A stretch of 64,000 nt of DNA. Source: an uncultured Oscillospiraceae bacterium. Its GTDB lineage: Bacteria > Bacillota > Clostridia > Oscillospirales > Oscillospiraceae. Position 1 is the stretch's first letter. Each line of letters begins with the position of its first letter. Location: assembly GCA_946546815.1 (NCBI GenBank), contig CAMNOL010000001.1:4998-68997 (forward strand), written 5' to 3'. Both the position numbers and the translations under genes were made by a program. Of the stretch, positions 7,965 through 60,257 are shown piece after piece. Under the pieces are notes generated by a model. It saw nothing but the letters and a program-made list of their open reading frames with translations, did not search any database and had not been told where the DNA came from.

Positions 7965-7993
7965 TTGACTGACTCCCAAAAAGCCGGTATAAT
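7965..7993 (+). promoter_or_regulatory. SigA-type promoter of the T-box/hisS-aspS transcript
   Basis: TTGACT-17 bp-TATAAT. Confidence 0.85.
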
Positions 7994-8336: not shown

Positions 8337-9695
8337 ATGGCAAAATTAAAGCCCCGCACCCTGGCCGGGTTCATGGAGCTGCTCCCTGCCCCTCAGCAGC
8401 AGATGGAGCGCATCATGCAGACCCTGCGGGAGACCTATTCCCTGTACGGCTTTACACCGCTGGACACCCCCATTATTGAAGACGCGCAGATTCTTCTGGC
8501 CAAGGGCGGCGGAGAGACTGAGAAGCAGATTTACCGGTTCCAGAAGGGCGACAGCGATCTGGCACTGCGCTTTGACCTGACGGTTCCCCTGGCCAAGTAT
8601 GTGGCCATGAACTATGGTCAGCTGACCTTCCCCTTCCGCCGCTATCAGATCGGCAAGGTCTACCGGGGCGAACGCCCTCAACGGGGCCGCTACCGTGAAT
8701 TCTATCAGGCGGACATCGACATCATCGGCGACGGCAAGCTGGACATCGCCAACGAGGCGGAGATTCCCTCCATCATCTACCAGACCTTCTCCCGTCTGGG
8801 CCTGAAGCGGTTCCAGATCCGGGTGAACAACCGGAAAATCCTCAACGGTTTTTATGAAATTCTGGGCCTCACTGAGCAGAGCCAGGAGGTCATGCGCACC
8901 GTGGACAAGCTGGACAAGATCGGTCCCAAGGCTGTCCGGGACATTCTGGTGGATGACATTGCCGTCGCCCCGGAAACCGCTGATGAAGTGCTGAATTTCA
9001 TCGCCATCAAGGGTACCAACACGGAGGTGCTGTCCGCTCTCGAGTCCTACAAGGGAAAATCCGCAACCTTTGACAAGGGTCTGGAGGAGCTGACCACCGT
9101 CACCCGCTATCTGGCGGCCTTCGGCGTACCGGAGGAGAACTTCGCGGTGGACCTGACCATCGCCCGCGGCTTGGACTACTACACCGGCACCGTCTACGAG
9201 ACCGTGATTTTGGATCACCCGGAGGTGGGCTCCGTCTGCTCCGGCGGCCGGTATGACAACCTGGCGGGCTACTACACCGACAAGCCCCTGCCCGGCGTGG
9301 GTATCTCCATCGGCCTGACCCGCCTGTTCTTTGTGCTGAACGACCAGAAAATGCTCAACGACGCCGTTCCCACCGCCCCCGCCGAGGTGCTGGTGGTGCC
9401 CATGAGCGCCGAGCAGCAGGGCTACGCCATCAGCGTGGCAACTCAGCTCCGCGCCAGCGGCATCCGCACCCAGCTCTACACCGAACAGAAGAAGTTCAAG
9501 GCGAAAATCAACTACGCCGTCAAGCTGGGCATCCCCTATGCCATGTTCCTGGGCGAGACCGAGGAGCAGGAACAGGTAGTGGCCATTAAGGACCTGGGCA
9601 AGGGCGAGCAGGTGACGGTAAAGCTGGAAGATGCCGTGGCCATTGTGAAAGAGTATCTGGAGAAAACGAAAGAAATTCCCAGCATCGTAGAGTAA
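8337..9695 (+). CDS. hisS: Histidine--tRNA ligase
   Basis: LRFDLTVP, YRGERPQRGRYREFYQADID, ARGLDYYTG, GGRYD. Confidence 0.97.
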   Translation: MAKLKPRTLAGFMELLPAPQQQMERIMQTLRETYSLYGFTPLDTPIIEDAQILLAKGGGETEKQIYRFQKGDSDLALRFDLTVPLAKYVAMNYGQLTFPFRRYQIGKVYRGERPQRGRYREFYQADIDIIGDGKLDIANEAEIPSIIYQTFSRLGLKRFQIRVNNRKILNGFYEILGLTEQSQEVMRTVDKLDKIGPKAVRDILVDDIAVAPETADEVLNFIAIKGTNTEVLSALESYKGKSATFDKGLEELTTVTRYLAAFGVPEENFAVDLTIARGLDYYTGTVYETVILDHPEVGSVCSGGRYDNLAGYYTDKPLPGVGISIGLTRLFFVLNDQKMLNDAVPTAPAEVLVVPMSAEQQGYAISVATQLRASGIRTQLYTEQKKFKAKINYAVKLGIPYAMFLGETEEQEQVVAIKDLGKGEQVTVKLEDAVAIVKEYLEKTKEIPSIVE

Positions 9696-41899: not shown

Positions 41900-44800
41900 T
41901 CACTGTTTTTTGCGGCGGATCAACCAGAACACTCCGTATCCGGCCAGCACCGCCATGGCTGCGCCGGATACCGCCGCGCCCAGCCGCAGACCCGGTGCGG
42001 TGTAGTAAAGCTCCACCTCAGAGCGGCCCGGCGGAAGCAGCGTGCCCAGGTACATACCGTTGACCTGCATCAGCTCCGCCGGCGCATTGTTGACGGTCAG
42101 GGACCATCCGGAGGAGTAGGGCACCGCAAAGGCCAGCAGCCGGGTGTCGTCCAGGGTGATGGTGCCGGTCAGGCCGCCGTTTGAGGTCTCCTGCACATGT
42201 TCAAGCACGTTTGTCCGCAGCCGGTTCACATCCCTGCTGTAGTCGGACATGGGCAGACAGACGATGTGAATCCCCTGTGCAGAATAGGTACCCTTCTGCT
42301 GGAAGGTGATGGTACAGGCTGTCATGGGAGATTCACTGTAGCCCAGATTGTAAGTATAACCGCTTCGGTCAAAATAATAAAGAGAATTCTCCTGATAAAA
42401 AACGGATTTCTTTTCTCCGCCGCCGCCCTGCACCAAAACCTGGGATTCCGGGTCCGAGCCGGAGTAATGGGTGTGATCCAGATACAGATAGGTTTCACAG
42501 TTTTCCAGCCCCTCAAAGGACAGGGTGATGGAGCCGTTTTTCTTTGTCACTTCAAATGTGCCGTCCTCCAGGGTGACGCCGTCGGAATCGGATACGGTCC
42601 AGGGAAGCTCCGAATCGGTGAGCTCCGGCGTCTTTTTGGGCAGCGCAACGGAAACGGTTTGCTCCGCGTCCGTGCCGATGACGGCGCCCTGCAGGATCGC
42701 CTGCTGCTTTTCCAGCGGCGGAAGGGCGTCATACTCAGCCTCAGGAAGATAGGAGTCGTAAGTGTACCCAAAGGGAAGCGCATACTGATTTTCGTAAACC
42801 GTCAGCTGGGATTTTTTGTCTTTTTTCAGCTCTGTAAACCCATAAGGAACCCGATCCGGGGACTTTTCCACGTAGTATTTAACGCCGCCCACAGCGCAGA
42901 GGCTGGAGCGCTGGTCCAGGCTCCAGAGGGCGTACAGCTGACGGACGGAGTCCAGATCGAAGTCCAGATAATAATCCACCATGGTGCCGTCCAGCACGCT
43001 CCAGTAGGTGCTGGTTCCGTTGCCCCCGGTGAGACAGAAGGTGTTGTGCCGGTTTCCGGGGATTTCTGCACGGTACAGGTCCGATTGCAGCCCTGTGACC
43101 ACGGCTTCTTCGCTGGTGGTGAATTTTTTTGCAGCGCTGCCCCGCTTGAGGTAGCTGTCCACCGCATTCAGGCCGTTGGGACTGTAGTAGTAGTCCACAT
43201 GCACCATCAGAGCCAGGACTGTGGCAGTGGCAAGGAGCTGCTGGGCCAGCTGCTTGTTGGGCAGGCGGTTCACCAGCAGCAGAATCCCGGTCAGTGCCGC
43301 CAGCAGCAGCATACTGTACACGATCATCCGGTTCAGGTGAAGATACAGCACTGCGGCGATATACGCCAGGGTGATGCCGGTCAGAATCCCCTGCTGAGGT
43401 TTGGAGAGGCGCACCAGATCCGGGAACAGACAGACAACGATCCCCGCCGCCAGCATGGCAAAGCCATAGCTCCAGCGGTTGGTGGCATAGCCCATGCCGT
43501 TGAATACGCTGCCCGCAATGGGCAGGCACAGAAATACAGCAGACAGGAGGGTCAGAAGCTTGAGCGGGCGCAGTTCAGAACGCCGCCGGGTGAGAAACAG
43601 CACCACAAGGGCCAGAAACACCGTGCCGACGAATCCCGTTCGGGTCCAGTTGGGCGCGCCGGGATCAAAGGAGACAAAGGTGGTCAGCAGACGGATGTAA
43701 TGGCGGGCGCTGTACAGAAGCCGGGTGCCCGCCGCCAGCGTGCTGCTGCGGCTGCTTTCGAACAGTCCGGCAATGGAGGGCAGGAAGGACACCATGGACA
43801 GCGCCATGCCCCACAGGTACAGCCCCACCAGCTGCAGCAAATCCTTTATGATCTGACCGATTTTTCCCTTGTACAGGTAAATTTCCCGGGTCAGCAGATA
43901 AATGGCCATCAGCAGGCTGTCCATCCAGGCGTAGTAATAGCCCCCCAGGAACAGAAATACCACGACAGCCACGAACATGCCCCATTTGCGCTTTTGCAGC
44001 CAGCGCTCACAGCCGGTCAGCAAAAGAGGCAGTCCCAGCATCAGGTAAGTGATGAAGTAGATGTGCTTGGTGGCGGTGAAAATGCCGAAGCCGCTGAAGG
44101 CGTAGACCAGAGAGCCCACCATCACCGGCAGCTCGTCCTTCTTTCCAACGGAACGGCAGAAGTACAAAAAGGCCAGACCACACAGGAAAACCTGCCCCAG
44201 CGTGTACAGGGCATAGACATACTCCATCCATCTGCGGGGAAACAGCAGCGCCAGCAGGTAGAAGGGGTTGATGCGGAACACCGAAAAGGCGCTGGCCCCC
44301 TGACCAATGGAAAAGTCCCACTGAGGAAGGACCAAATGCCCGGTTTGGAACAGGGTACGCAGGACCTTCCATACGTACTCCCGGGAGTAGTACATCATCA
44401 CCAGATAGAGATTTTCTCCATCGGGCACCCAGATCAGGCTGTGACCGGTCTGGGCAAAGGCGCTCATCATCTGGCTCAGCAGCAGAGCGAATACCAGGCA
44501 GTACAGAGGGAAATACAGGCTGTTTTGCCGGCGGCGTTTGATCTTCAGAATGGAGCTTTGGTCCGTCATGTGCTGGGGCAGGTCCAGGAACCAGTTGGGA
44601 ACCTTGGCCGCCAAGGGCAGACAGGCCGCCAGGGGCAGCACTGCGGTCAGTCCGGTTCTCAGCAGCGCCGCCATGGTTCCGCCCCGCAGGAAGGGCAGCG
44701 CAGCCACCAGGAAGGAAAGTCCACGATGCCAGAAAATACCGGAATACCAGTACTGACTCAGGTTTGTGACCACAGGCAGCGGACGGTTGGGGCAGAGACT

Positions 44801-47977: not shown

Positions 47978-48844
47978 ATGATATATCTCAACCGGGAACG
48001 ATTGAAATTCGCGGCAAAAAAACAGGTGCTGGACAGGACCTCCGGTGTCATGCTGGTCAGTCTGATCTACATTCTGCTGACGGACACCCTGTCCACGGCG
48101 GTGAATCTGGTGATGACCAATCCGATCACGCTGATCCAAAATCAGCTGATGAGCAGTATGAACAGTCTGATGAATCAGTACCAGGCCTCCGGCGGTGCGG
48201 GTGACCTGGATCTGACCCCTGCCTATTCCGCCATGTTCAGCTATGCCAGACAGCTGCTGTTTACTCCCAAGCAGGAGATCGTTCTGTTTCTGTTCCTGCT
48301 GCTGTACCTTTATACCATCGTCATGTCCTACGGCTACAGCGACTGGGCGATGCGCACTGTGCGGGGAGAGCGGCTGAGCTGGACCAGTCTGTTTGACCAC
48401 CTCTGGCTGGCGGGCAAGCTGATTGTGCTGGAGCTGCTGACCCTGGTCCTGACCAGCGTCGGACTGGTGTTCTTTGTGCTGCCCGGACTTTACTTTTACT
48501 ACAGCTTTCGCCTGGCCCGTTATGTGCTGCTGGACAGACCGGACCGGTCGATCATCCATGTGCTGCGCCTGAGTATGCGGCTGAGCCAGGGCTACAAGCG
48601 GCAGCTGTTCGCAATGGACCTCTCGTTTATCGGATGGGTGATTCTGAATGCATTTGCCTTGAATGCGGCGTATACCGCAGGTGCTGCGGTGAATGTCTTT
48701 GTGGCAACGCTGCTGGGAGAGCTGGCGTATCTGGCGGTAGCAGTTTTTGTGCTGCCCTACCGGGAGCTGACCGCTGTGAACTACTATGAAGCCATGCGCT
48801 CCAAAGATCTGAGCATGAGTAAGGAAGCCACCACACACAGCTGA
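47978..48844 (+). CDS. DUF975-like integral membrane protein
   Basis: RERLKFAAK start; PGLYFYYSFRLARYVL; S...GYKRQLF..DLSFIGW; PY......Y. Confidence 0.78.
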   Translation: MIYLNRERLKFAAKKQVLDRTSGVMLVSLIYILLTDTLSTAVNLVMTNPITLIQNQLMSSMNSLMNQYQASGGAGDLDLTPAYSAMFSYARQLLFTPKQEIVLFLFLLLYLYTIVMSYGYSDWAMRTVRGERLSWTSLFDHLWLAGKLIVLELLTLVLTSVGLVFFVLPGLYFYYSFRLARYVLLDRPDRSIIHVLRLSMRLSQGYKRQLFAMDLSFIGWVILNAFALNAAYTAGAAVNVFVATLLGELAYLAVAVFVLPYRELTAVNYYEAMRSKDLSMSKEATTHS

Positions 48845-48870
48845 TGGAAATGGGATCCTTTGAAAACAAT

Positions 48871-48901
48871 ATCCCACCTGTTCACACTGAACAGGTGGGA
48901 T
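48871..48901. terminator. Bidirectional terminator
   Basis: ATCCCACCTGTTCA/TGAACAGGTGGGAT perfect 14-bp stem. Confidence 0.85.
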
Positions 48902-48938
48902 TACTTATGGGTGTAGTTTCTTATAAACGGGGTTGGAA

Positions 48939-49859
48939 TCAGGATGCATCCGAATCGCCCTGGAGCTCTTCAAAGACCAGATTGGCAACCTGCTCAAGGG
49001 TTTCCCCGTCTACAGGGTCAAGGCAGCTCAGGTTGTAGTTAACTCCCGGAACCACATCCATCCAGGAGATATAACCGACTTCGTCGCAGGTGTAGATTTT
49101 CGCCTCTCTGCCGTTGACTTCGCCGGCTTCTTCCGAGGTCCATTTGTAGTGCAGACCGGACATATCATAGGTTTCCAGCTCGCCGGTCATCTGGGCACGG
49201 TACTCGTACTTGTGGCCATCGTACTCAAAGGACACTGCAGCGATGAGGTTTTCGTTGTCTTCGATAAAGATGACGGTGCGTTCTACGTTAGTGGCCTTTT
49301 CCGGGGCGTTAAGCACCATACCGACCGTATCCAGCTGCTCCTGCTCGGTTACCTTAACGACGGGGTTGCTCAGACCCGCCAGTTCCGGAATGTTCGGCAG
49401 AGGCGGAATGCCGCTGGCAGAAGCGTCAGCCGCGTCAGCGGTGTCGGTGGCCTGGGCACTCTCAGCGGAAGCCTCTCCCTCCGGGTAGATGAGCAGGGTG
49501 CCGGTGGTGTTTTTGCCGGAGGTGATCAGCACGTTGTAATCTCCCGGCTCCAGATCGTAGCTGTAGGTGTTCACGCCGGTGATGGTCTCATCCACCAGAG
49601 CGGTCTGGTCGTCTCCCTCTGCTCGCACCTTAATCTGAATGGAGGAATCCCCCTCCAGATTGGACTCGACGGCCAAAGTCTGACCTTCTGCCAGGGTGAA
49701 ATAGCCCACGCCGCCGCTGCCTTCTCCGGCCTTCTGCGCCGTTACCTTGACTTGTCCGTCTTCCGTGTTATCTATGGTCATTTCGCCCTTTTGTCCGCAG
49801 CCCACCAGCAGGGCAGCCAGAAGCAGCAAAACGCCCAGGGCTTTCAGTTTCTGTCTCAT
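48939..49859 (-). CDS. Uncharacterised acidic lipoprotein
   Basis: Lipobox LLVG-C; two domains joined by an Ala/Asp linker. Confidence 0.8.
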   Translation of the reverse strand: MRQKLKALGVLLLLAALLVGCGQKGEMTIDNTEDGQVKVTAQKAGEGSGGVGYFTLAEGQTLAVESNLEGDSSIQIKVRAEGDDQTALVDETITGVNTYSYDLEPGDYNVLITSGKNTTGTLLIYPEGEASAESAQATDTADAADASASGIPPLPNIPELAGLSNPVVKVTEQEQLDTVGMVLNAPEKATNVERTVIFIEDNENLIAAVSFEYDGHKYEYRAQMTGELETYDMSGLHYKWTSEEAGEVNGREAKIYTCDEVGYISWMDVVPGVNYNLSCLDPVDGETLEQVANLVFEELQGDSDAS

Positions 49860-49886: not shown

Positions 49887-49971
49887 TGTACTCCTCTAAA
49901 TAGTACAGATTAATTATAACCCCTTTTGTCTGCCCTGTCAAGGGAATGGGATCATTTGTAATCAGTTGTAA
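49887..49971 (-). promoter_or_regulatory. Lipoprotein promoter: TTACAA direct repeat, TTGACA-17-TATAAT, TGTA-N13-TACA operator
   Basis: Repeat 49971-49954, -35 49941-49936, -10 49918-49913, operator 49907-49887. Confidence 0.8.
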
Positions 49972-50003
49972 TGATTGTCACAACTGCTTTCATTGTTAAA
50001 AGC

Positions 50004-50041
50004 AAAAAAACAGCCCGATTCCTGAGAAATCGAGCTGTTTT
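50004..50041 (-). terminator. Terminator after rpsR
   Basis: AAAACAGC(C/T)CGATT stem with an A run on the plus strand. Confidence 0.75.
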
Positions 50042-50056
50042 CAGAATCAATACAAA

Positions 50057-50293
50057 TCAATCTGCGACGTAGGGCAGCAGTGCGATCTGACGGGCGCGCT
50101 TGATGGCGACGGTCAGCTGACGCTGATGCATAGCGCAGGTGCCGGTGGTGCGGCGGGGCAGGATCTTGCCGCGCTCAGACACATAGCGGCGCAGCTTGCC
50201 GGTATCTTTGTAATCGATCTGCTGGATCTTGTCAACGCAGAAGTTGCAGACCTTTCTGCGCTTGCGACCACGATTATTTCTGTCGAAAGCCAT
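50057..50293 (-). CDS. rpsR: 30S ribosomal protein S18 (zinc-binding form)
   Basis: [32 protein letters not shown]. Confidence 0.98.
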
Positions 50294-50340
50294 GATAGAA
50301 ACCTCCTCATTTGAGAATAGAACCCATTACACAGGTTCGT

Positions 50341-50859
50341 TTAGAACGGCAGTTCGCCGTCATCGTCGTTTAATTCCGCAAATTCATTTGCGGGAGCCTG
50401 TCCCATGCCGGACGGGGCATAGGCAGAGGGTGCATTGTAGCTGGGCTGAGCAGGCTGCTGGGGAGCAGCATAGCCGCTGTTATAGCCGCCGCCGTTTGCA
50501 CCGTAGCTGTTCTGCTGGCCATAGCTGCCGCTTTCCCGTTTGGAAGAGGCGAAGTTGACGTTCTCTGCCACGACTTCGGTGAAGTAACGGCGCTGACCGT
50601 TGTTGTCGGTGAAGTCCCGGGTCTGAATGCGGCCGTCTACCAGAATCATGCTGCCCTTGGTGAAATAACGGCTGATGAACTCAGCGGTCTGCCGCCAGGC
50701 AACGATGGTGATAAAGTCAGCATTCTGGGCGTTGGGGTCTTTGCTCCGGTAATCCCGGTCGCAGGCGATCCGGAAGGTTGCCACCGCAACGCCGCTCTGA
50801 GTATGGCGCAGCTCAGGATCCGCCACCAGGCGGCCCTGCAAAATTGCTCTGTTCAGCAT
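50341..50859 (-). CDS. ssb: Single-stranded DNA-binding protein
   Basis: LNRAILQGRLVADPELR, C-terminal DDDGELPF. Confidence 0.97.
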   Translation of the reverse strand: MLNRAILQGRLVADPELRHTQSGVAVATFRIACDRDYRSKDPNAQNADFITIVAWRQTAEFISRYFTKGSMILVDGRIQTRDFTDNNGQRRYFTEVVAENVNFASSKRESGSYGQQNSYGANGGGYNSGYAAPQQPAQPSYNAPSAYAPSGMGQAPANEFAELNDDDGELPF

Positions 50860-50868
50860 AAAAGCTCC

Positions 50869-51165
50869 TTATTCAGCCTGCTCGACCACGATGGAGCGGA
50901 TGACGCCGTCGGTGATGTTGTAGTTACGGGTCAGCTCAGCGGGGAAGTCGGGAGCAGAAGTGAAGGTGATCAGGGTGTAGTAGCCCTCGGTCTTATGATC
51001 AATCGGATAAGCCAGATGACGCTTACCCCATTCAACCACTTCGCCCAGAGTACCGTTTGCCTCAATCAGAGCCTTGAACTTAGCCACCAGAGCCGCAATG
51101 CCGTCATCACCCAGAGTGGTGTCAACAATGAAGATGGTTTCGTATTTGCCAGTAACCTTTGCCAT
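50869..51165 (-). CDS. rpsF: 30S ribosomal protein S6
   Basis: YETIFI, WGKRHLAYPI, EGYY, VIRSIVV. Confidence 0.97.
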   Translation of the reverse strand: MAKVTGKYETIFIVDTTLGDDGIAALVAKFKALIEANGTLGEVVEWGKRHLAYPIDHKTEGYYTLITFTSAPDFPAELTRNYNITDGVIRSIVVEQAE

Positions 51166-51173
51166 GTGATTTG

Positions 51174-51232
51174 CACCTCCTTATGGACATTTGGCCTTCG
51201 CCTGTCGTCTTTTTTTGCGAAGGCAAGGATTC
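51174..51232 (-). ncRNA. S6:S18 ribosomal-protein leader
   Basis: Minus strand ATCCTT-GCCTTCGC...GCGAAGGC-CAAATGT-CCA-TAAGGAGG: stem, CCR motif and anti-SD pairing over the rpsF RBS. Confidence 0.7.
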
Positions 51233-51256
51233 GCTGTGATAGATCACAGCCCTTCC

Positions 51257-51285
51257 ATTCTAACCACATCCTTCCGCATTGTCAA
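51257..51285 (-). promoter_or_regulatory. Promoter of rpsF-ssb-rpsR
   Basis: TTGACA-17 bp-TAGAAT with TG. Confidence 0.85.
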
Positions 51286-51410
51286 GCACAAATCGTTGAA
51301 ATAATGAAAAAATACCGGGATTCCTGTTGGAGACAGGCCAGTTCCCGGCCTTTGATGGATCACAGCGGAGAAAACTTCCCAATGGGGGCAAAGGTTTCAA
51401 AAAAATATTG

Positions 51411-51449
51411 GAACAAATGTTTGCAATGGCGGCGGTTTTGTGATAAACT
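51411..51449 (+). promoter_or_regulatory. SOS (Cheo) box GAAC-AAAT-GTTT overlapping the lexA -35
   Basis: GAAC-N4-GTT(C/T) at 51411-51422; TTGCAA-17 bp-TAAACT. Confidence 0.78.
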
Positions 51450-51498
51450 GATGATGATCAAATCTATTCTTTCCCCCGTATCCAATGGAGGTTATCTT

Positions 51499-52110
51499 AT
51501 GAAACAGCTGACACAGAAACAGCAGGTCATTTATGACTACCTGCTGAAATTTACCGCGGAAAACGGCTATCCCCCATCCGTCCGGGAAATTGCCGCAGCG
51601 GTGGGCCTGAAAAGCCCCTCTACCGTTCATTTTCATCTGAAAGCCCTGGAGGAGGCCGGAGCCATCAACCGGGGAACCGGCAAGACCCGGGCTATCACCG
51701 CGGTCCACAGCGCGGTGCCCGAAGAAGAAGCGCCCCAGCTGAACCGGGTTCCCGTGCTGGGCAATGTGGCCGCCGGAGCGCCCATACTGGCAGAGGAGTG
51801 TGTGGATGATTACCTGACCTTTGACACCGAGGGTCAGTCCGGTGAGCACTTTGCCCTGCGCATTCGGGGAGAATCCATGCTCAACGCCGGAATCCTGCCC
51901 GGAGACTACGTGGTGGTGCACCGCCAGCCTGTGGCACGCAACGGCGAAATTATCATCGCGCTGCTGGGAGAAGAGGCCACCTGCAAGCGTCTAAACAAGC
52001 AGGGGGGGAAGGTTTGGCTGATGCCGGAAAACCCGGATTATGAGCCCATCGACGGCACGGACTGTCAAATTCTGGGCAAGGTGATCGCTGTCGTCCGGAA
52101 ATATCATTGA
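51499..52110 (+). CDS. lexA: SOS repressor LexA
   Basis: YPPSVREI, SPSTVH, VAAGAPI (Ala-Gly cleavage site), GESM, EATCK. Confidence 0.96.
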   Translation: MKQLTQKQQVIYDYLLKFTAENGYPPSVREIAAAVGLKSPSTVHFHLKALEEAGAINRGTGKTRAITAVHSAVPEEEAPQLNRVPVLGNVAAGAPILAEECVDDYLTFDTEGQSGEHFALRIRGESMLNAGILPGDYVVVHRQPVARNGEIIIALLGEEATCKRLNKQGGKVWLMPENPDYEPIDGTDCQILGKVIAVVRKYH

Positions 52111-52589
52111 CCCGGCGGGTGATCCGGACCGCGCTGGGGCAGTTTACCGCCGCTGCGGAGGACGGAGCGGTGACAGAGCTGTCCGTCGGCGTGCTGCCGG
52201 CAAAGGAGGCGGAGCTGCCGGAAGATGCTGCGGTGCTGGATCGACTGGAATTCCAGCTGGAAGAGTATGCCCGGGGGGAGCGAAAGGCCTTTGATCTGCC
52301 GGTGCGGCTGGAAGGCACCGACTTTCAGCGTCTGGTGTGGGCAGAGCTGCAGAAGATCCCCTACGGCGAAACCAGGAGCTATGGACAGATTGCTTCCGCC
52401 ATCGGCAGGCCGACGGCCGGACGGGCTGTGGGCAGAGCCTGCGGGAAAAACAGACTTTTATTGCTGGTGCCCTGCCATCGGGTGGTGGGCAGCACCGGCA
52501 GCCTGACCGGCTTCAGCGCGGAGGGCGGCGTAAAGACCAAGCTGAAACTGCTGGAGCTGGAAAACCATCACAGGAGAAAACCGGAATAA
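52107..52589 (+). CDS. ogt: Methylated-DNA--protein-cysteine methyltransferase
   Basis: GTDFQ..VW, IPYGETRSY, RAVG, PCHRV; TTGA overlap with lexA. Confidence 0.92.
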   Translation: MTRRVIRTALGQFTAAAEDGAVTELSVGVLPAKEAELPEDAAVLDRLEFQLEEYARGERKAFDLPVRLEGTDFQRLVWAELQKIPYGETRSYGQIASAIGRPTAGRAVGRACGKNRLLLLVPCHRVVGSTGSLTGFSAEGGVKTKLKLLELENHHRRKPE

Positions 52590-52595
52590 ATTGAA

Positions 52596-52943
52596 ATGAA
52601 TATTCAGATTTTTGGAAAAACCAAGTGTTTCGACACAAAAAAAGCCCAGCGCTATTTTAAGGAGCGCCGCGTGAAGTTCCAGAACGTGGACCTTCTCAAG
52701 TACGGCATGAGCAAAGGGGAGCTAACCAGTGTGATCCGTGCGGTGGGCATGGATGCGGTCATTGACTCCAAACATCCCATGGCGGCCGGGCTGAGCTACC
52801 TCGCCTATGACGAACAGAAGCTGGATCATCTGCTGGAGGATCCCCGGCTGCTGAAAACCCCCATTGTCCGCAACGGCAGACAGGCCACGGTGGGGTATCA
52901 GCCTGAAATCTGGAAGCAGTGGGAGGCAGCGGAAAAGAAATGA
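52596..52943 (+). CDS. ArsC/Spx-family thioredoxin-fold protein (single Cys)
   Basis: IQIFG.TKCFDTKKA.RYFKER, LLKTPIVRNG, VGY. Confidence 0.82.
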   Translation: MNIQIFGKTKCFDTKKAQRYFKERRVKFQNVDLLKYGMSKGELTSVIRAVGMDAVIDSKHPMAAGLSYLAYDEQKLDHLLEDPRLLKTPIVRNGRQATVGYQPEIWKQWEAAEKK

Positions 52944-53230
52944 CCCCTTCCCTGCTCCCCATCACAGCTGTTTACCTGATTTTGATGAATCTTGCCGGAT
53001 TTGCTGCCTTTGGTCTGGACAAGGGAAAGGCGCAAAAACACCGCTGGCGCATTCCGGAATCCACCCTGCTGGGGCTGAGCCTGGCCGGGGGATGGCTGGG
53101 GGCGCTGCTGGGCATGAAGGCGTTTCATCACAAGACCCGAAAGGCGAAGTTCCGCATCGGCGTGCCGATGGCCGCAGCCCTTTGGATGGGATTGCTGGTT
53201 CTGGCGATTCGGGCAGGGTTGCTTTTCTGA
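52940..53230 (+). CDS. DUF1294 family membrane protein
   Basis: FGLDKGKA...WRIPESTL...GG..GA..GM..FHHKTRK. Confidence 0.88.
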   Translation: MTPSLLPITAVYLILMNLAGFAAFGLDKGKAQKHRWRIPESTLLGLSLAGGWLGALLGMKAFHHKTRKAKFRIGVPMAAALWMGLLVLAIRAGLLF

Positions 53231-53338
53231 GAAAATCTGCCGGTTTCCCTTTCTTGTCCGGGGAAACTGTGCTATACTGACCACAGCTTTTGCGTAAAAA
53301 TCACTGCGGCATCCCGCCGCTGACAGGAGGATCTCATT

Positions 53339-53782
53339 ATGGCAATCGCACATCTCGTTACACAGAAGGTTCAGGAGGTTCACTTCACCAATAAGCTGAC
53401 CCAGCAGGGCCAGATTCAGCTGACCAGCAGCTTTACCTTCAACGTCAACTTTTCAAAGGACGGCAAGCGCTGCATTGCCCGCATTTATCAGAGCGTGAAG
53501 GACAAAGAGGAAAGCGAGCAGCTGTTTGCTTCCGTTGACATGGTGGGCGCCTTTGCCTGCGAGAATGTGGAAACGGATGAGGACAAAAAGCAGGTCCATG
53601 CACAGTGCTATGACCAGCTGTTCCCCTATCTGCAGTCCGTACTCCAGACCCTGATGCAGTCCTCCGGTATCCCCGGATTTACGCTGCGGAAGGCGGTCAT
53701 GAATCCCGAAAATGTCCGGGTTGGCACCGCTCCCAATCAGCAGGGACAGCAGCCGCCCAAAAAGCAGTTCCCCATCGTGTGA
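53339..53782 (+). CDS. SecB-like chaperone
   Basis: Beta-strand N-half, then A..YDQLFPYLQS.....SGIPG.TL, matching the SecB LFPY..GFPPL pattern. Confidence 0.62.
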   Translation: MAIAHLVTQKVQEVHFTNKLTQQGQIQLTSSFTFNVNFSKDGKRCIARIYQSVKDKEESEQLFASVDMVGAFACENVETDEDKKQVHAQCYDQLFPYLQSVLQTLMQSSGIPGFTLRKAVMNPENVRVGTAPNQQGQQPPKKQFPIV

Positions 53783-53794
53783 GAAACAGAAAAG

Positions 53795-53827
53795 AAGGTC
53801 CCGGCATCCAATGTCGGGACCTTTTAT
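53795..53827. terminator. Bidirectional terminator
   Basis: AAGGTCCCGGCA/TGTCGGGACCTT followed by TTATT. Confidence 0.75.
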
Positions 53828-53867
53828 TGCGTATGACAGGAAATTCAACCAAAGGCCGGCGAAGGGG

Positions 53868-54293
53868 TTACTGGTTCAGCATACCGTGCAGCTGACTGCG
53901 GATGCGCTCCACCTGCCGGATGGCGTCGTCCACCTGCCGCTTGGCGGTGCTGATGCGGGACTGTACCATCCAGTCAGCGATCAAACCGTCGAAGAAGTAG
54001 TCGGCAAAGGACAGGAAATCCCCGGTGTCCAGATTGACATCCATGGCGGCGTGGACATCCTGCAGTTCCCGGCTGAACCGGCGAACGGCCTGACGGGCCT
54101 GCTCCAGCTCCCGCTGGGCGCTGTCCATGTGGCTGTGCTTGAGCAGAGTGGACAGAAATCCTCCGCCAAACAGGTCAACCAGTCCCCAGTTGCCAGCTTT
54201 GTTCAGACTGTGTCTGGCCTGATTCAGATACATCAGCGCCTGGTCAGCGGCGTCAATGGCCTCACTGATTTCTCTGTGTTGAAAAGCATCCAT
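53868..54293 (-). CDS. Hypothetical helical protein
   Basis: RBS GAGGA, extended -10 TGGTAGAAT near 54340; WGLVDLFGGG...KH motif; coiled-coil pattern. Confidence 0.75.
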   Translation of the reverse strand: MDAFQHREISEAIDAADQALMYLNQARHSLNKAGNWGLVDLFGGGFLSTLLKHSHMDSAQRELEQARQAVRRFSRELQDVHAAMDVNLDTGDFLSFADYFFDGLIADWMVQSRISTAKRQVDDAIRQVERIRSQLHGMLNQ

Positions 54294-54412
54294 GACAGAT
54301 TCCTCCTGTGAATGAGAATGGTGTTTTCTGATGATCCGGATTCTACCACAGGGTTCTTTGAAGATCCTTGAAAAAGGATTAAAATCACCTGAAAACAACT
54401 TTGACACAGCCG

Positions 54413-54497
54413 TTACAACTGATTACAAATCCGGTTTTTCTATTGACAGGGAAGGGGGCATTGGTTATAATGATGCCGTACTAATCAAAAGCGTACA
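54413..54497 (+). promoter_or_regulatory. ytrA-operon promoter: TTACAA direct repeat, TTGACA-17-TATAAT, CGTA-N13-TACA operator
   Basis: Repeat 54413-54430, -35 54443-54448, -10 54466-54471, operator 54477-54497. Confidence 0.82.
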
Positions 54498-54616
54498 ATT
54501 CATACAGAGGGAGAGGGAACTGTATGCTTGCCAGGCCAGCTGTCGGCGGTGCGTTGGTGCCGGCTCTCCTGAGTGATGGCAACTCACTGTATCTGCGGAA
54601 TAAAAGGGGTGATTTT

Positions 54617-55003
54617 TTGATTATCACACTGAATTACAAGAGCAAGACGCCGCTGTGTGACCAGCTTTGCGAGTCTATCATACGGCTGGCGGCCTGCGGG
54701 GCCCTGCCGCCCGGGGAATCGCTGCCCTCGGTGCGATCACTGGCCCAGGAGTTGGGCATCAATCCCAACACCGTGCAGAAATCTTATCGCATGCTGGAAC
54801 AGCAGGGCGTGATTGAGAGCGTCCCCGGCAAAGGATCCTTTATCGCCCAGGGCAAGGCCGCTCAGCAGCGGCTGAGAAACACCGGTGTGGCAGCGCTGGA
54901 AGAAGGGATCCAGACTGCGCTGGATCGGGGGATTTCCCCGGAAGAGATCCCACAGATCTGCGCGGAGTATCTCAAGAAGAAAGAAGGGACGACTCATGAT
55001 TGA
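54617..55003 (+). CDS. GntR-family (YtrA subfamily) repressor
   Basis: SKTPL..Q, LPSVRSLA, INPNTVQKSY, PGKGSF. TTG 54617 after AGGGGTG; alternative ATG at 54524. Confidence 0.92.
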   Translation: MIITLNYKSKTPLCDQLCESIIRLAACGALPPGESLPSVRSLAQELGINPNTVQKSYRMLEQQGVIESVPGKGSFIAQGKAAQQRLRNTGVAALEEGIQTALDRGISPEEIPQICAEYLKKKEGTTHD

Positions 55004-55907
55004 GATTTCATCCTATACGAAGAAATTTGGCAAGCTGGTAGCGCTGAATCAGATTTCCTTTACCATTGCAGAGGGAAGCATTTTCGGACTGGTGGGCAGC
55101 AACGGCGCGGGCAAATCGACCCTGCTGAGGAGCCTGTGCGGAGTTTATGCGCCGGACGGAGGTTCCATCCAGATTGACGGAGAAAAGCCCTTCGAAAATC
55201 CAAAGGTCAAGTCCAAAGTGGTGTTCGTGCCGGACTTTCCCTACTATATGCCCCAGTCTTCCCTGAGATCCATGGCAAAATTCTACCAGAAAATGTATCC
55301 CACCTGGAGCAATACGGAATATCTGCGCCTGTGCTCCCTGTTTGGGCTGAATCAGAAAACAAAAATTCACAATATGTCCAAGGGTATGCAGCGGCAGGCC
55401 GCCCTGATCTGTGCGCTGGCCACCATGCCGGAGTATCTGCTGCTGGACGAGGTCTTTGACGGACTGGACCCGGTGATGCGACAGCTGCTCAAGCGGATTA
55501 TCTCTGACCAGGTGGTGGATCGGAAAATGACAGTGGTCATTGCTTCCCACAACCTCCGGGAGCTGGAGGATTTCTGCGACCATGTGGGTCTGATCCATGA
55601 AGGCGGCGTCATCTTCGAGCAGGAGCTTGACGCGCTGAAGCTGGGCATTCACAAGGCCCAGGCTGTGTTCCAGCCGCCGCTGGAGCAGCAGCAGATTGAA
55701 TGGCTCAAAGAGCAATTGGACATCATCAAGCTGGAGACCCGGGGTTCTATGGTCAGCCTTGTGGCCCGAAAGGACCAGGAGACGGTAGAGAATACCCTCT
55801 CCCAGCTGGAGCCGGTGTTCTCCGAGACCCTTCCCCTGTCTCTGGAGGAAGTATTTATCAGTGAAATGGAGGCGGCAGGCTATGACCTCAACAAGATCCT
55901 CTCGTGA
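54996..55907 (+). CDS. ABC transporter ATP-binding protein (YtrB-like)
   Basis: GSNGAGKST, MSKGMQ, LLLDEVFDGLD, SH. Confidence 0.93.
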   Translation: MIEISSYTKKFGKLVALNQISFTIAEGSIFGLVGSNGAGKSTLLRSLCGVYAPDGGSIQIDGEKPFENPKVKSKVVFVPDFPYYMPQSSLRSMAKFYQKMYPTWSNTEYLRLCSLFGLNQKTKIHNMSKGMQRQAALICALATMPEYLLLDEVFDGLDPVMRQLLKRIISDQVVDRKMTVVIASHNLRELEDFCDHVGLIHEGGVIFEQELDALKLGIHKAQAVFQPPLEQQQIEWLKEQLDIIKLETRGSMVSLVARKDQETVENTLSQLEPVFSETLPLSLEEVFISEMEAAGYDLNKILS

Positions 55908-58002
55908 GGAGCGCAAAAACAGCTCCTTCCGCCGGGTGTTCTGGTGGACAATGGGGTATAACCGCGTTCTGACGTTTTTCTATACCATGTTTGTGGTGGG
56001 GGCGCTGCCTGTAGGGGTGCTTCTGGGCATTATTGGAAATCGGGATTACTACACCGACATGAGCAACTGGACGGAGAGCACACCGGAAGAAGTTGCGCAG
56101 ATGTTCGGGGACACGGTCCGCCAGAGCTTCAATGTCCAGCTCACCAGTCTTGTCATTCCCCTCGCTATTTTATTCCTGCTGGTGTGGTGTGCCCGAAACT
56201 TCAGCTATATGCACGGCCGCCGCAGCGTAGATTTGTTCCACGCCCTGCCCGTCCGGCGCACCCCCCTGTTTATGGGAACCTATGCAGCAGGACTGATTTC
56301 CATGCTGGTGCCCTTGGCGGTGTCTGTTGGCCTGACTGAGGTGGTCTGCGTGACGAATGGAATCCGCGGAGTAGCCGGCAGTCCCGCCCTGTTCTGGCAG
56401 GCGTTCGGCTTGATGGCGCTGACCATGACGGCCAGCATGACCTTCACCGTGTTCTTTATGGTGGTCAGCGGCAACCTGCTGAACTGGTTCCTGTCCGTTT
56501 CGGCGGTGGCGCTGGGCTGGCCGGTAATCTGCGCGATTGCCAACTTCACTATGTCCGCTTTCCTGCCGGGCTATGTCTCCGTGCTGCCCATGGCCCTGTA
56601 CACCGCGCTGAGCCCCTACTTTGCGGTGTACAGCATCATCCCCAACGGCATCTACTATATGCTCGCCAGCATACAGGACGGGAGTTACAGCGTGGAGCCT
56701 GATGGGGTAATCTACAACATTCCGGTGGAGTTTGTGATCTGGTGGGTGTGCTTTACCCTGCTGCTGCTGGCGCTGTCCGTGTTCTACTACGGCCGCCGGA
56801 AGAGCGAGTGCGCAGAGAACGCCTTCTCCTTCCCCGCTGCCCGTGGCGCAGTGCGCAGCCTGATGACCATCGGCGGCAGCCTGGGCCTGGGTCTGGTGGT
56901 TGGAACCCTTCTGGACAACAACACCGCTTATTTCGCCGGCATTGTCATTGGCGCAGTCGTGGCCCATACGGTGTTCCAGGTGGTCATCACCCGGGGCTTC
57001 CGCAGATTCTGGGTCACCATTCCCGCCTTTGTGGTGACCATGGCGCTGATTGGCGGCGGATTGTATACCCTTTACACCGGCGGTTTGGGCTACGTATCCC
57101 GGATTCCCCAGGCCGGAGATGTGGAGAGGGTGGACTTCACCCTGCCCAGTGTTCCCGGTGATGAGAGCAAGGAGTGTTATCTGGCGGTCAACAACGGCGG
57201 CGGAATAACGCTGCTGAACAAAGAGATGGAGTGGGAGGATCAGCTGACGCCGTATTTCTCCAAACAGGGAGATGTGGACGCCATGTGCCAGTTCCACAGC
57301 CAGGTGCTGACCAAGTACCCCGGTCCCTACCTGCCCTTTGGGAAGAAAATGGACTACAACAATATGCAGAACTTCACGGTGACGTACACCCTGAAGGATG
57401 GACGCACCTTACAGAGGGATTACACCCTGCCCCTTTATCAGGACGACGAGAATCTGCTCTCTGCGCTGGCCACGGTACAGAAGCTGCCCACCTATCAGAG
57501 CTATATCCTTTACTACTCCCTGAAAGCCGATCTGGTTCTCTCTCTGGATGTGTACAAGTATAACGAGAAATCGGAATACTCTGCCGGCAACAATGAGCTG
57601 ACTGCGGAACAAAAGAAGCAGGTTTGGGCCACATTCACCCAGGAGATGAACAGCCCTGACTTTTCTGAGCCGTCGGACCTGGTGACTGCGGAGGAAGCTG
57701 AGAAGGAATCCAACGCTGAGGCAGCGGAGGATGAGAATGGGATTTCCTCTGGCAGCAGTGATTCCTTCACCATCTCCTTTGACAGCATTCCCCTCGATCA
57801 GATCTCTCCAGAGATCCGGGCTCTGATTACAGAAGAGTATCAGCATCCCATTGTGGCTGTTGAAGGAATCTCTATCAACGTGCCCCAGTGCTGCACCAAA
57901 ACCCGGAAGCTGATCGATGACCTGACCAAGCAGAATGGCGAAACCTATTATTACAATGAAGACGAGGACCCTGCAGATGCAGGTCCCGCTGACGCCAGCT
58001 GA
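55882..58002 (+). CDS. ABC transporter permease with a large C-terminal extracytoplasmic domain
   Basis: Many TM segments, DLFHALPVRR motif, YGRRKSE...F; overlaps the ATPase gene. Confidence 0.85.
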   Translation: MTSTRSSREERKNSSFRRVFWWTMGYNRVLTFFYTMFVVGALPVGVLLGIIGNRDYYTDMSNWTESTPEEVAQMFGDTVRQSFNVQLTSLVIPLAILFLLVWCARNFSYMHGRRSVDLFHALPVRRTPLFMGTYAAGLISMLVPLAVSVGLTEVVCVTNGIRGVAGSPALFWQAFGLMALTMTASMTFTVFFMVVSGNLLNWFLSVSAVALGWPVICAIANFTMSAFLPGYVSVLPMALYTALSPYFAVYSIIPNGIYYMLASIQDGSYSVEPDGVIYNIPVEFVIWWVCFTLLLLALSVFYYGRRKSECAENAFSFPAARGAVRSLMTIGGSLGLGLVVGTLLDNNTAYFAGIVIGAVVAHTVFQVVITRGFRRFWVTIPAFVVTMALIGGGLYTLYTGGLGYVSRIPQAGDVERVDFTLPSVPGDESKECYLAVNNGGGITLLNKEMEWEDQLTPYFSKQGDVDAMCQFHSQVLTKYPGPYLPFGKKMDYNNMQNFTVTYTLKDGRTLQRDYTLPLYQDDENLLSALATVQKLPTYQSYILYYSLKADLVLSLDVYKYNEKSEYSAGNNELTAEQKKQVWATFTQEMNSPDFSEPSDLVTAEEAEKESNAEAAEDENGISSGSSDSFTISFDSIPLDQISPEIRALITEEYQHPIVAVEGISINVPQCCTKTRKLIDDLTKQNGETYYYNEDEDPADAGPADAS

Positions 58003-58125: not shown

Positions 58126-59361
58126 TTATTCTTTTTTTCTGGGCAGGGAAAAGAAAAAGGTGTTTCCTATCCCTTCGCTGCTCTCGGCCCAGAGTTTTCC
58201 CTGGTGTTCCTCCGCAATTTGGGCGGCGATGGACAGCCCCAGACCGAAGCCCTCCGAGCTGCGGGCCTGATCTGCCCGGTAAAACCGCTCGAAAATCCGT
58301 TTTAGCTGGTCTTGAGGGATGGGGTCTCCCTTTGTGTTTACACTGAGCCGCACCCGCTTTTGTCCCTCCGGCTTTAGACGGAGGGTGACAGTGCTGTGGG
58401 GAGCGGCGTATTTTTTGGCGTTGTCCAACAGAATGTCCACCAGACGGCGGAGCTTGGAGGGGTCACCGGTGACGGTGAGGTGTTCCGCAATCTCGTCCTC
58501 CAGTGTCTTTCCCGCCTCAAAGAGCGGGGCTTCAAAGAGCAGGACCTCGTCCGTCACCAATTCGCTGAAATCCACCTCTTCCCGGATTCGGTTTTTGGGG
58601 GACTGGTTGTCGGAGCGGGCCAGTGTCAGCAGCTCTTCCACCAGCTCTGTCATCTGGCCGGAGCTGGCCTTGATGTTGTCCACCCAGCGGGCTTCCCGTT
58701 CCCCCAGCCCTTCCCCATAGGTCTGCAGCATATCCACATTGGAAAGAATGACGGTGAGCGGCGTCTTCAGCTCATGGGAGGCGTCGGAGACAAACTGGCG
58801 CTGCTTTTTCCAGCTCTCTTCCACCGGGCCGGTGGCCCACCGCGCCAGCAGCACACTGATGAAGAAAAATACAATCAATGTCCCCGCAAAAATGATAATC
58901 AGGTGGTACAGCAGCGCCTGGAGGGTGCTGAGCTCCTGAGAGATATCCACGAAGGTAATGCGCCAGCCCAGCAGCTTTTCCTGACGCAGGTAGCGCAGGC
59001 GGAAGGCGGGCAGGGAACCCACGCTGCCGGATTCATCCATGCAGGCCTGCACAATGGACTTGAGCTGATCTGCGTCCGCCACCGCCCCGAACTGGTTGTC
59101 CAGCAGCACCACGCTGCCGTCTACCCCTACCATGACGCTGAAATAGGGCAGGTTGATTTCTTTGTCAGAAGTCCCATCCTCGTAGGAACGGGGCCAGCTG
59201 ATGGTGAAGTTTTCGTTTGCCGCCTGATAGAGCATGGAAATACTGTCTTTGCGCAGATTGTCCCGGGTGACTTCCAGCATCAGCACACCGATGGCGGTGA
59301 GAATCAGGGTGACGATGAGCATATTGATCAGGACAAATTTCCACCGAAGTTTGCGAATCAT
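58126..59361 (-). CDS. Sensor histidine kinase (2 TM, HisKA, HATPase)
   Basis: DASHELKTPL, ILLDNAKKY, IFERFYRAD, GFGLGLSIA. Confidence 0.95.
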   Translation of the reverse strand: MIRKLRWKFVLINMLIVTLILTAIGVLMLEVTRDNLRKDSISMLYQAANENFTISWPRSYEDGTSDKEINLPYFSVMVGVDGSVVLLDNQFGAVADADQLKSIVQACMDESGSVGSLPAFRLRYLRQEKLLGWRITFVDISQELSTLQALLYHLIIIFAGTLIVFFFISVLLARWATGPVEESWKKQRQFVSDASHELKTPLTVILSNVDMLQTYGEGLGEREARWVDNIKASSGQMTELVEELLTLARSDNQSPKNRIREEVDFSELVTDEVLLFEAPLFEAGKTLEDEIAEHLTVTGDPSKLRRLVDILLDNAKKYAAPHSTVTLRLKPEGQKRVRLSVNTKGDPIPQDQLKRIFERFYRADQARSSEGFGLGLSIAAQIAEEHQGKLWAESSEGIGNTFFFSLPRKKE

Positions 59362-60038
59362 GTTGCGGTCCCCTCTTCCAGCTGATAGCCCAGCATCCGG
59401 AGGGTTTTGATGGTGACCCGGCTGTTCAGATGGTGGAGCTTCCGCCGCAGCAGAGAGATGTACACCTCCACATTGTTGTCCTCGGCGTTGGATTCATAGC
59501 CCCACACCGACAGCAGCAGCGCCTCCTTGGTGACCACGGTGCTGCCGTTTGCAAGCAGCTTGGACAGAATTTCAAATTCCTTTTTACTCAGCCGAATGCT
59601 CTTCCCGCCGCAGCTCAACTGGCAGGAAGCCAGCTCCAGCCGCAGGTCTCCAAAGGTCAGGGCGTTGTCCTCCACGTTGCTCTGCCGCCGGGTGATGGCT
59701 CGGATGCAGGCCAGCAGCTCCTGGGTCTGGAAGGGCTTGGTCAGGTAGTAGTCGGCGCCTGCGTCCAGGCCGCTGACCCGGTCATCCAGCTGGGTCCGTG
59801 CGGTGAGCATCAGCACCGGGGTTTTGACGCCCTGAGCCCGCATGGTCCGGACAATTTCAAAGCCGTTCCGTTTGGGCAGCATCACATCCAGGATCACCGC
59901 ATCATAAATGCCGCTCAGCGCATTGTCCAGGCCGGACTCCCCGTCGTAGGACAGGTCTACGCTGTAATGCTGGGCGTCCATCAAATCGCCAAGGGTCTGT
60001 GCCAGCCGGCGCTCGTCCTCTACAATGAGAATACGCAT
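59358..60038 (-). CDS. OmpR/PhoB-family response regulator
   Basis: ILIVEDE, LDVMLP, GADYYLTKPF, VEVYISLLRRKL, RMLGY. Confidence 0.96.
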   Translation of the reverse strand: MRILIVEDERRLAQTLGDLMDAQHYSVDLSYDGESGLDNALSGIYDAVILDVMLPKRNGFEIVRTMRAQGVKTPVLMLTARTQLDDRVSGLDAGADYYLTKPFQTQELLACIRAITRRQSNVEDNALTFGDLRLELASCQLSCGGKSIRLSKKEFEILSKLLANGSTVVTKEALLLSVWGYESNAEDNNVEVYISLLRRKLHHLNSRVTIKTLRMLGYQLEEGTAT

Positions 60039-60227: not shown

Positions 60228-60257
60228 AGTATAGCAACCTGAAAGGGAGCTGAAAGG
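60228..60257 (-). promoter_or_regulatory. Response-regulator promoter with an 11-bp-period CCTTTCAG direct repeat
   Basis: CTGAAAGG at 60239 and 60250 on the plus strand; minus-strand TG-C-TATACT at 60233-60228. Confidence 0.6.

Follow-up and report, generated by a model that had tools for sequence, protein, structure and literature searches.

We analysed a stretch of 64,000 nucleotides (nt) from an uncultured Oscillospiraceae bacterium, referred to here as the window, in which two promoters about 4.5 kb apart are built on the same plan. All counts and chance expectations given for the window refer to this whole stretch, and L-numbers (L001, L048, L049 and others) denote comparison loci from relatives. 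One promoter precedes an operon on the forward strand that encodes a small GntR-type regulator (54617..55003), an ATP-binding cassette (ABC) ATPase resembling DrrA and PmtA (54996..55907), whose gene overlaps the gntR stop codon, and a membrane protein of 706-713 amino acids (55882..58002) in which an N-terminal ABC-2-type permease region is followed by about 290 amino acids without assigned function. The other precedes a gene on the reverse strand (48939..49859) for a lipoprotein of 306 amino acids with the lipobox LLVGC, in which a linker joins a beta-sandwich domain to a conserved alpha/beta domain of about 145 amino acids at the C-terminus, also without assigned function. These gene assignments agree with those of the initial annotation of this DNA.

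Layout and conservation of the two promoters

At the gntR operon (site A, forward strand), the 18-mer TTACAACTGATTACAAAT at 54413-54430 is followed by 12 nt, TTGACA at 54443-54448, 17 nt, TATAAT at 54466-54471, 5 nt, and the dyad CGTACTAATCAAAAGCGTACA at 54477-54497. At the lipoprotein gene (site B, reverse strand), an identical copy of the 18-mer at 49971-49954 is followed by 12 nt, TTGACA at 49941-49936, 17 nt, TATAAT at 49918-49913, 5 nt, and the dyad TGTACTATTTAGAGGAGTACA at 49907-49887. Direct reading of the sequence thus reproduces the 18-mer, the spacings and the positions given in the initial annotation. The 18-mer is a direct repeat, TTACAA-ctga-TTACAA-at, whose two hexamers (DR1 and DR2) occupy 54413-54418 and 54423-54428 at site A. 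Each core is a perfect sigma-A/sigma-70-type promoter (54443..54471, forward; 49913..49941, reverse), with predicted transcription start sites (TSS) at about 54478 and 49906. At both promoters the 18-mer lies at about −65 to −48 and the dyad, a putative operator of the form TGTA-N13-TACA, at +1 to about +21. The dyad reads CGTACT-N9-GCGTACA at site A and TGTACT-N9-AGTACA, with perfect arms of 6 base pairs (bp), at site B.

Two further features were absent from the initial annotation. The first is a third half-site, CATACAG at 54501..54507 (forward), 9 bp 3′ of the right operator arm; the segment TTCATACAGA is the same in the window, L049 and L050. Site B has a weaker counterpart, CACACAA, within GTTCACACAA at 49886-49877. 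The second is an upstream block, TGAAARCARYTKTGACA, common to both sites (54390-54406 and 49992-49976) with an offset of 2 nt, and species-specific. An intrinsic terminator after rpsR (50006..50042, reverse) separates the lipoprotein promoter from the ribosomal-protein operon, and similar hairpins are present in L048 and L049.

Chance falls far short of explaining the architecture common to sites A and B. With three mismatches allowed, the window still contains only these two copies of the 18-mer (0.02 expected), and a perfect TTGACA-N17-TATAAT occurs only at sites A and B, with seven matches if up to one mismatch is permitted (0.08 expected). The sequence between the motif blocks differs between the two sites, and since the sequence outside the motifs has diverged, the two promoters are not a simple recent duplication. 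The operator core GTACT-N10-GTACA is found exactly at sites A and B and once more, at 44375-44394. This third match lies inside an open reading frame (ORF) of 1264 amino acids of the YfhO family, has the GC-rich spacer CCCGGGAGTA and no promoter, and is probably a chance occurrence. Other GTA-N13-TAC matches in the window fall within coding frames, and a site at 7987 upstream of a hisS-like gene, where N18 separates the GTAC elements, was rejected as an operator.

The three-part layout recurs in genus-level relatives. Positional orthologs of the lipoprotein gene, located after rpsR and before a DUF975 gene, were found in two other species, L048 and L049, and in both the operator stands 5 nt after the −10 element as a perfect palindrome (TGTACT..AGTACA in L048, TGTACTA..TAGTACA in L049). 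The L048 lipoprotein promoter keeps the repeat as TGACAActgaTTACAA with identical spacing, and in L049 DR2 is degenerate. The gntR promoters of L049 and L050 keep all three parts. Over the six distinct promoters, column identity is 0.94 in the −35 and −10 hexamers, 0.89 in the operator arms, 0.80 in the repeat hexamers, 0.57 in the third half-site and 0.43 in all other columns, and the same pattern is obtained when gntR promoters are compared with lipoprotein promoters alone. DR1 (T[T/G]ACAA) is kept in 6/6 and DR2 (TTACAR) in 4/6; their spacing is constant at 10 bp, and the pair invariably ends 14 nt 5′ of the −35 element (about −65 to −50).

Variants of the same species from metagenomes differ almost solely at spacer positions. 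The one change within an operator, C to A at the gntR promoter in L053, turns the right arm into AGTACA. A scan of the JGI metagenome collection with the composite pattern returned these two promoter types and two chance matches only. A lack of conservation upstream of orthologs, which the initial annotation had named as a refutation, is therefore seen at neither the gntR nor the lipoprotein promoters, and, as judged from sequence comparison, the two constitute a real, conserved and co-regulated pair.

A probable YtrA-type repressor and its putative operator

The regulator carries a GntR winged helix-turn-helix at its N-terminus (PF00392, E = 2.3e-14, 53 bits against a cut-off of 27). Residues 3-120 align with 4HAM (134 amino acids), and full-length alignments were obtained with 3BY6, 6SBS, 3NEU and 4R1H, the whole set of structures spanning 121-134 amino acids. 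Members of the YtrA subfamily are about 120-130 amino acids long and have a very short, helical C-terminal effector and oligomerization region of about 50 amino acids, a trait that this protein displays. Family and structure matches place the small regulator in the YtrA subfamily of GntR transcription factors.

Its true start is probably TTG 54617 (ribosome binding site GGGGTGAT) rather than ATG 54524, because orthologs align from residue 1-2 and the gene call in L050 is of 127 amino acids. The TTG start gives a protein of 128 amino acids and a leader of about 135 nt; the ATG gives the form of 159 amino acids reported by gene callers. The segment 54524-54616 thus contains an in-frame ATG with a good ribosome binding site 31 codons 5′ of the conserved TTG, and this extension is not conserved as protein in L049 and the L010 group and is absent in L050. 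Consensus folding of the gntR leaders gave no conserved structure (−0.36 kcal/mol), and an Rfam search of the leaders and the whole window returned one tRNA and nothing else.

Relatives of the permease were collected at 39 loci, representing 39 species-level genomes, and the gene order GntR-ATPase-permease holds in 36/39; the other three end at a contig edge before the gntR gene. Directly after the −10 element, about 35 orthologous operons carry the palindrome TGTAYTAAT-N-ATWRTACA, over a range of GntR identity from 78% down to 33%. It is often followed by a further ATACAG unit. This ATACAG-like third half-site, in direct orientation about 9-10 bp 3′ of the right arm, is widely conserved in the upstream regions of L009-L042, which suggests that binding of the YtrA-type protein would go beyond a simple dimer.

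Published YtrA motifs are long and have widely separated half-sites (PMC6746942), and the two B. subtilis YtrA sites on record are dyads with arms 13 bp apart (PMC4730234). A long palindrome with half-sites about two helical turns apart is likewise present at both promoters here. Together with the conservation in about 35 operons and the full-length matches to YtrA structures, these B. subtilis data bear out the initial reading of TGTA-N13-TACA as the YtrA-type operator form, and the dyad is very probably the operator of the GntR protein. Its position at +1 to +21 of a consensus promoter implies repression. Genes of the subfamily belong to operons for ABC transporters or membrane proteins, which they autoregulate. 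Here gntR lies within the ABC-transporter operon and the putative operator covers its own TSS, so that gntR is presumably autoregulated.

We favour the view, with a probability of about 0.7, that sites A and B form a two-promoter regulon of this YtrA-subfamily repressor. When unbound, both consensus sigma-A promoters would be very strong. A dimer of the 128-amino-acid GntR protein would bind the TGTA-N13-TACA dyad at +1 to +21, probably using the third half-site about 9 bp further downstream as well at its own promoter, and from the start site it would block initiation or promoter escape. Its own operon and the unlinked lipoprotein gene would be repressed together, and release by a signal would turn on transporter, repressor and lipoprotein together. 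The signal may be the substrate of the transporter, by analogy with S. aureus PmtR, where the substrate of the exporter itself lifts repression (PMC5080381), or alternatively an envelope-related cue, as for YtrA (PMC12772383). The TTACAA-N4-TTACAA repeat at −65 to −50 would be a second conserved input that modulates both promoters in parallel, most likely through another transcription factor encoded elsewhere than next door.

Both units are transcribed. Four genuine rumen metatranscriptomes contain contigs from both, at a depth of 2-8, and in the same runs depth is zero for nearly all of the non-ribosomal neighbours lexA, ogt, the DUF975 gene, a gene for a protein of 141 amino acids and the kinase and regulator genes. 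Contigs of the gntR unit begin no further upstream than 54488, 10 nt after the predicted TSS. These data are consistent with co-expression from the predicted promoters, for which they are weak evidence. A further run labelled metatranscriptomic, X5, has flat depth over genes and intergenic DNA; it probably reflects carry-over of DNA and was not used for expression. In this run, positions 48227-49507, comprising most of the DUF975 gene and two thirds of the lipoprotein gene, have about zero depth at 95% likeness with covered flanks, which suggests strain-level divergence or loss.

Several points weigh against the proposed regulon. The dyad at the gntR promoter is imperfect in the window species (CGTACT / GCGTACA). 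The distant lipoprotein-domain homologs in L002, L004 and L008 have neither motif upstream, so that the second target is confined to one genus-level clade; these homologs have one domain in common with the lipoprotein and are uninformative on conservation. The metatranscriptome data are low-depth contigs that show presence, not co-variation. The analysis shows the architecture, its conservation, the protein family and transcription of both units; which protein binds which element, the repression and the signal are inferred. Finally, the scan for further members covered the 64-kb window, and the regulon may be larger genome-wide.

The initial annotation had called the lipoprotein a co-regulated partner of the ABC system. 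Its standing as a second target holds up, with the operator kept in L048 and L049; the idea of a functional partnership is inferred from that co-regulation alone. Lipoprotein and permease have no meaningful sequence similarity, their genes are not adjacent in other lineages, and the lipoprotein fold is uninformative on the question. The lipoprotein is rare (eight homologs). Its AlphaFold model, which is reasonably confident (pLDDT 78), gives weak jelly-roll or carbohydrate-binding-module-like matches for the N-terminal domain, and structure comparison of this model gave no match for the conserved C-terminal domain. The positional orthologs vary in domain content and measure 306, 475 and 377 amino acids (window 48939-49859, L048 871-2298 and L049 3267-4400). 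Neither the N-terminal beta-sandwich nor an insert of about 170 amino acids is present throughout; the constant parts are the lipobox, the C-terminal domain of about 145 amino acids (NPV..LNAPEGA..Y.YR.Q.TGE..YDMSG..WLDVVPGVNY.LSC) and the operator.

The upstream repeat and its candidate binders

In more distant clades the repeat takes related forms or is absent. In the L010 group, GTAACA/GTAAAA/TTACAG units lie on a separate distal promoter, in L018/20/21/22 the repeats read TGTAAC, and the most distant orthologs have none. This distribution marks the repeat as an addition to a basic promoter under YtrA-type repression, and the upstream module appears to be separable from it. Specifically, L010, L011, L012, L014, L015, L017 and L019 have two tandem promoters about 260 nt upstream of gntR, of which the distal one carries three GTAACA/GTAAAA/TTACAG repeats and its own operator-like dyad, and the proximal one the operator only.

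Given the TT-CA core of the hexamers, and because TTACAA is the reported BceR half-site (PMC11034029), an OmpR-family protein is the most likely class of binder. Tandem direct hexamers with a period of 10-11 bp at a fixed distance are typical of OmpR/PhoB-type regulators, and T[T/G]ACAA-N4-TTACAR in the six promoters fits this description. Two other traits of such systems are missing here. OmpR/PhoB-type targets have a weak or absent −35 element, so that their transcription depends on the activator, but both promoters match the consensus at 12/12 positions with a 17-bp spacer; and a cognate regulator would have the same box at its own promoter or at its other targets, which is not so for the one candidate examined, the regulator encoded next door. 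That regulator is an OmpR-family response regulator (59358-60038) encoded with a histidine kinase (58126-59361) on the reverse strand (58126..60038), convergent to the gntR operon. The kinase has two hydrophobic segments about 120 amino acids apart.

Upstream of the response regulator gene we found a different box, TTTCAG-N5-TTTCAG (TTTCAGctcccTTTCAG, 60239..60255, reverse), which is a single match in the window (0.04 expected). In the generalized form YTTCAG-N5-TTTMAG, it recurs upstream of the response regulator gene in L049 (14509) and L050 (6894), and upstream of an ABC-2 operon in L056 (4507), L057 (2921), L058 (4711), L012 (18974), L015 (17265) and L019 (15349). This operon encodes ABC_tran, ABC2_membrane_2, GldG-like and DUF4340 proteins and is followed by the response regulator and kinase genes in L056-58. 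In every case the box has a period of 11 bp and takes the place of the −35, about 10 nt 5′ of the −10 element; 11 matches occur in 0.93 Mb, against about 0.4 expected by our own estimate. A hexameric direct repeat with N5 located 10 nt 5′ of the −10 element is the CiaRH-like arrangement, the CiaR box being TTTAAG-N5-TTTAAG, 10 nt before the −10 (PMC3091779). The likeness to streptococcal CiaRH is one of box architecture; NCBIfam gives only generic OmpR-family matches for the neighbouring system. In YTTCAG-N5-TTTMAG the two-component system next door probably has its own cognate box.

These observations bear on an alternative in which the adjacent kinase phosphorylates the OmpR-family regulator encoded beside it, this regulator activates both promoters through the TTACAA repeats and GntR represses them, as part of an envelope stress response. 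The geometry of the repeat, the identity of its hexamer with the reported half-site of BceR, which belongs to the OmpR family and regulates an ABC transporter in S. mutans (PMC11034029), and the TT-CA core common to TTACAR and TTTCAG all speak for such dual control, as does the convergent kinase-regulator pair, whose adjacency to the gntR operon is kept in L001, L049, L050 and L053 only, relatives with TTACAA-type repeats. Yet the promoters of this regulator and its orthologs carry the CiaR-architecture box (PMC3091779), and the TTACAA repeat is absent upstream of the response regulator gene (window, L049, L050) and near the orthologous two-component systems in L056-L058. Moreover, repeat-bearing promoters occur in lineages without such a system within 7-10 kb (the L010 group and L018/20/21/22), and the kinase and regulator genes are almost undetected in metatranscriptomes in which both targets are transcribed. 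An activator at the repeats, as initially proposed, finds no support in promoters that are already perfect consensus and do not need one for recruitment, and the adjacent regulator that the proposal implied appears to have its own box. We consider this alternative unlikely. A cell-envelope stress role may be suggested by analogy only.

A second alternative assigns all five TACAR units, namely DR1, DR2, both operator arms and the third half-site, to GntR itself, which would form a higher-order or looped complex around the consensus promoter and so repress it tightly. Repeat (TTACAA), operator arm (GTACAA/G) and third half-site (ATACAG) do have a TACA core in common; the widely conserved direct third half-site makes binding beyond a simple dimer likely, and secondary half-sites contribute to binding by Sulfolobus YtrA (PMC6746942). 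If true, this would be a binding mode not described for this minimal GntR subfamily, and it would explain why repeat and operator travel together without a dedicated second regulator. However, a symmetric dimer with arms about 17 bp apart is at odds with direct units spaced by 10 bp, TACA is preceded by T in all repeats but by G or A in the operator and third half-sites, and the repeat units are about 65 bp from the operator. In addition, an upstream repeat is lacking in most of the orthologous operons that have the dyad, and the repeat hexamers do not co-vary with the operator arms across clades. Such a complex seems quite improbable to us.

That the layout has no regulatory meaning, having been copied or gene-converted within the species or having arisen by chance, is very improbable and is largely refuted by cross-species conservation: the 18/18 identity, which includes the non-hexamer CTGA and AT, and the additional species-specific block (54390-54406 and 49992-49976) point to some concerted evolution, but the spacers have diverged (43% identity) around conserved motif blocks, other species retain these blocks at both promoters, the operator is a conserved feature of the whole operon family and the chance expectations are 0.02-0.08.

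The two-promoter regulon with a repressor at the start site and a second factor at the repeat is thus the reading that we retain. The shared repeat would mean that a second input is wired into both promoters, and the identity of its binder is the sole part of the system with some potential for surprise. A caution follows for annotation in general: as the neighbour appears to have its own CiaR-like box, a binding site should not be assigned to the nearest response regulator.

Known systems and the surrounding genes

The YtrA regulon of B. subtilis comprises ytrGABCDEF and ywoBCD (PMC12772383). The system described here resembles it in having a small YtrA-subfamily GntR repressor encoded in an ABC operon, presumably autoregulated, together with exactly one unlinked envelope or membrane-protein locus, and the dyad arms are 13 bp apart in both cases (PMC4730234). 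In contrast, the window operon encodes one ATPase and one fused permease of 713 amino acids, not orthologous to YtrBCDEF; in place of ywoBCD, the second target encodes just one lipoprotein, which has a novel domain; and the arms are TGTAC/GTACA, with a conserved direct repeat at −65 to −50 and perfect consensus promoters. YtrA(Sa) of Sulfolobus acidocaldarius also has a narrow, two-locus regulon, consisting of its own operon and another membrane-protein locus. Its motif lies over the TSS, with additional half-sites on the flanks that add to binding (PMC6746942); in the present case such a layout is seen in the sequence. However, YtrA(Sa) is an archaeal, compact dimer with a 14-bp core motif, whereas the window has a 21-bp bacterial-type dyad, and YtrA(Sa) has neither an ABC transporter nor an upstream direct repeat.

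In the S. aureus PmtR-pmtABCD system, a YtrA-type repressor is likewise the first gene of an ABC-2-type exporter operon, and PmtR and PmtA are among the nearest named NCBIfam families to the regulator and ATPase described here, below the cut-offs. PmtR differs in having a single target, its own operon, and the permease architecture is different. Like the TTACAA repeat, the CiaR and BceR boxes consist of hexamers repeated every 10-11 bp, and their distance from the core promoter is fixed. The S. mutans BceR site, TTACAA-N2-TTGTAA, has the same half-site hexamer but is inverted, whereas the repeat here is direct (PMC11034029). The CiaR box replaces the −35 element, whereas the TTACAA repeat lies upstream of an intact consensus −35, and its period is 10 bp versus 11 bp in the CiaR-type box of the neighbour. 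A BceRS-BceAB-type module for sensing peptide antibiotics was also considered and rejected. Such modules have a BceB-type permease (FtsX domain, 10 transmembrane segments), an intramembrane-sensing kinase that lacks an extracytoplasmic domain, and an inverted BceR box. Here the permease has no FtsX match (its homologs match ABC2_membrane_2), the extracytoplasmic loop of the kinase is about 120 amino acids long, and the repeat is direct.

YtrA regulators with two targets are already known, and the genes described here are not orthologous to theirs; current concepts are unchanged. What differs from the known YtrA regulons is the shared upstream repeat, the third half-site and the perfect consensus promoters. 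The value of the system lies in providing a testable regulon for a recurrent, uncharacterised Clostridia module (YtrA-type repressor, ABC ATPase and ABC-2 permease of about 710 amino acids, in 39 species-level genomes) and in linking it to a lipoprotein with a conserved uncharacterised domain, which offers a handle on both. The operator consensus TGTAYTAAT-N-ATWRTACA with its third half-site could be used to annotate targets of the regulator in metagenome-assembled genomes from gut and rumen.

The permease has 71 homologs, several of which match PF12679 (ABC2_membrane_2), and it is always third in the operon. Identity of the ATPase is 58-84% across the orthologous operons of Clostridia and 42-45% across those of Erysipelotrichaceae. 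The window comes from a ruminant-gut member of the Clostridia with relatives among Oscillospiraceae/Ruminococcaceae metagenome-assembled genomes; the nearest species representative has only 57% permease identity, and near-identical contigs were found in bovine gut metagenomes. Composition of the window is uniform, at 53-60% GC, with no island signature. Elsewhere in the window, a near-consensus promoter, TTGACT-N17-TATAAT at 7965-7993, lies about 340 nt 5′ of a gene resembling that for histidyl-tRNA synthetase (8337-9695), whose long leader has no T-box or other Rfam match at the gathering threshold.

Between a SecB-like gene (53339-53782) and the gntR promoter lies a coiled-coil-like ORF of 141 amino acids without a family match (53868-54293, reverse). 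L049 and L050 lack this ORF at the corresponding place, so that it seems to be an insertion specific to the species. The SecB-like gene stands just before the gntR operon in the clade of the window, and directly after the response regulator and kinase genes in L056 (11332-11763) and L057 (9763-10194). This arrangement suggests that the gntR-ABC-permease operon sits in a rearranged ancestral neighbourhood of ABC-2, response regulator-kinase and SecB-like genes.

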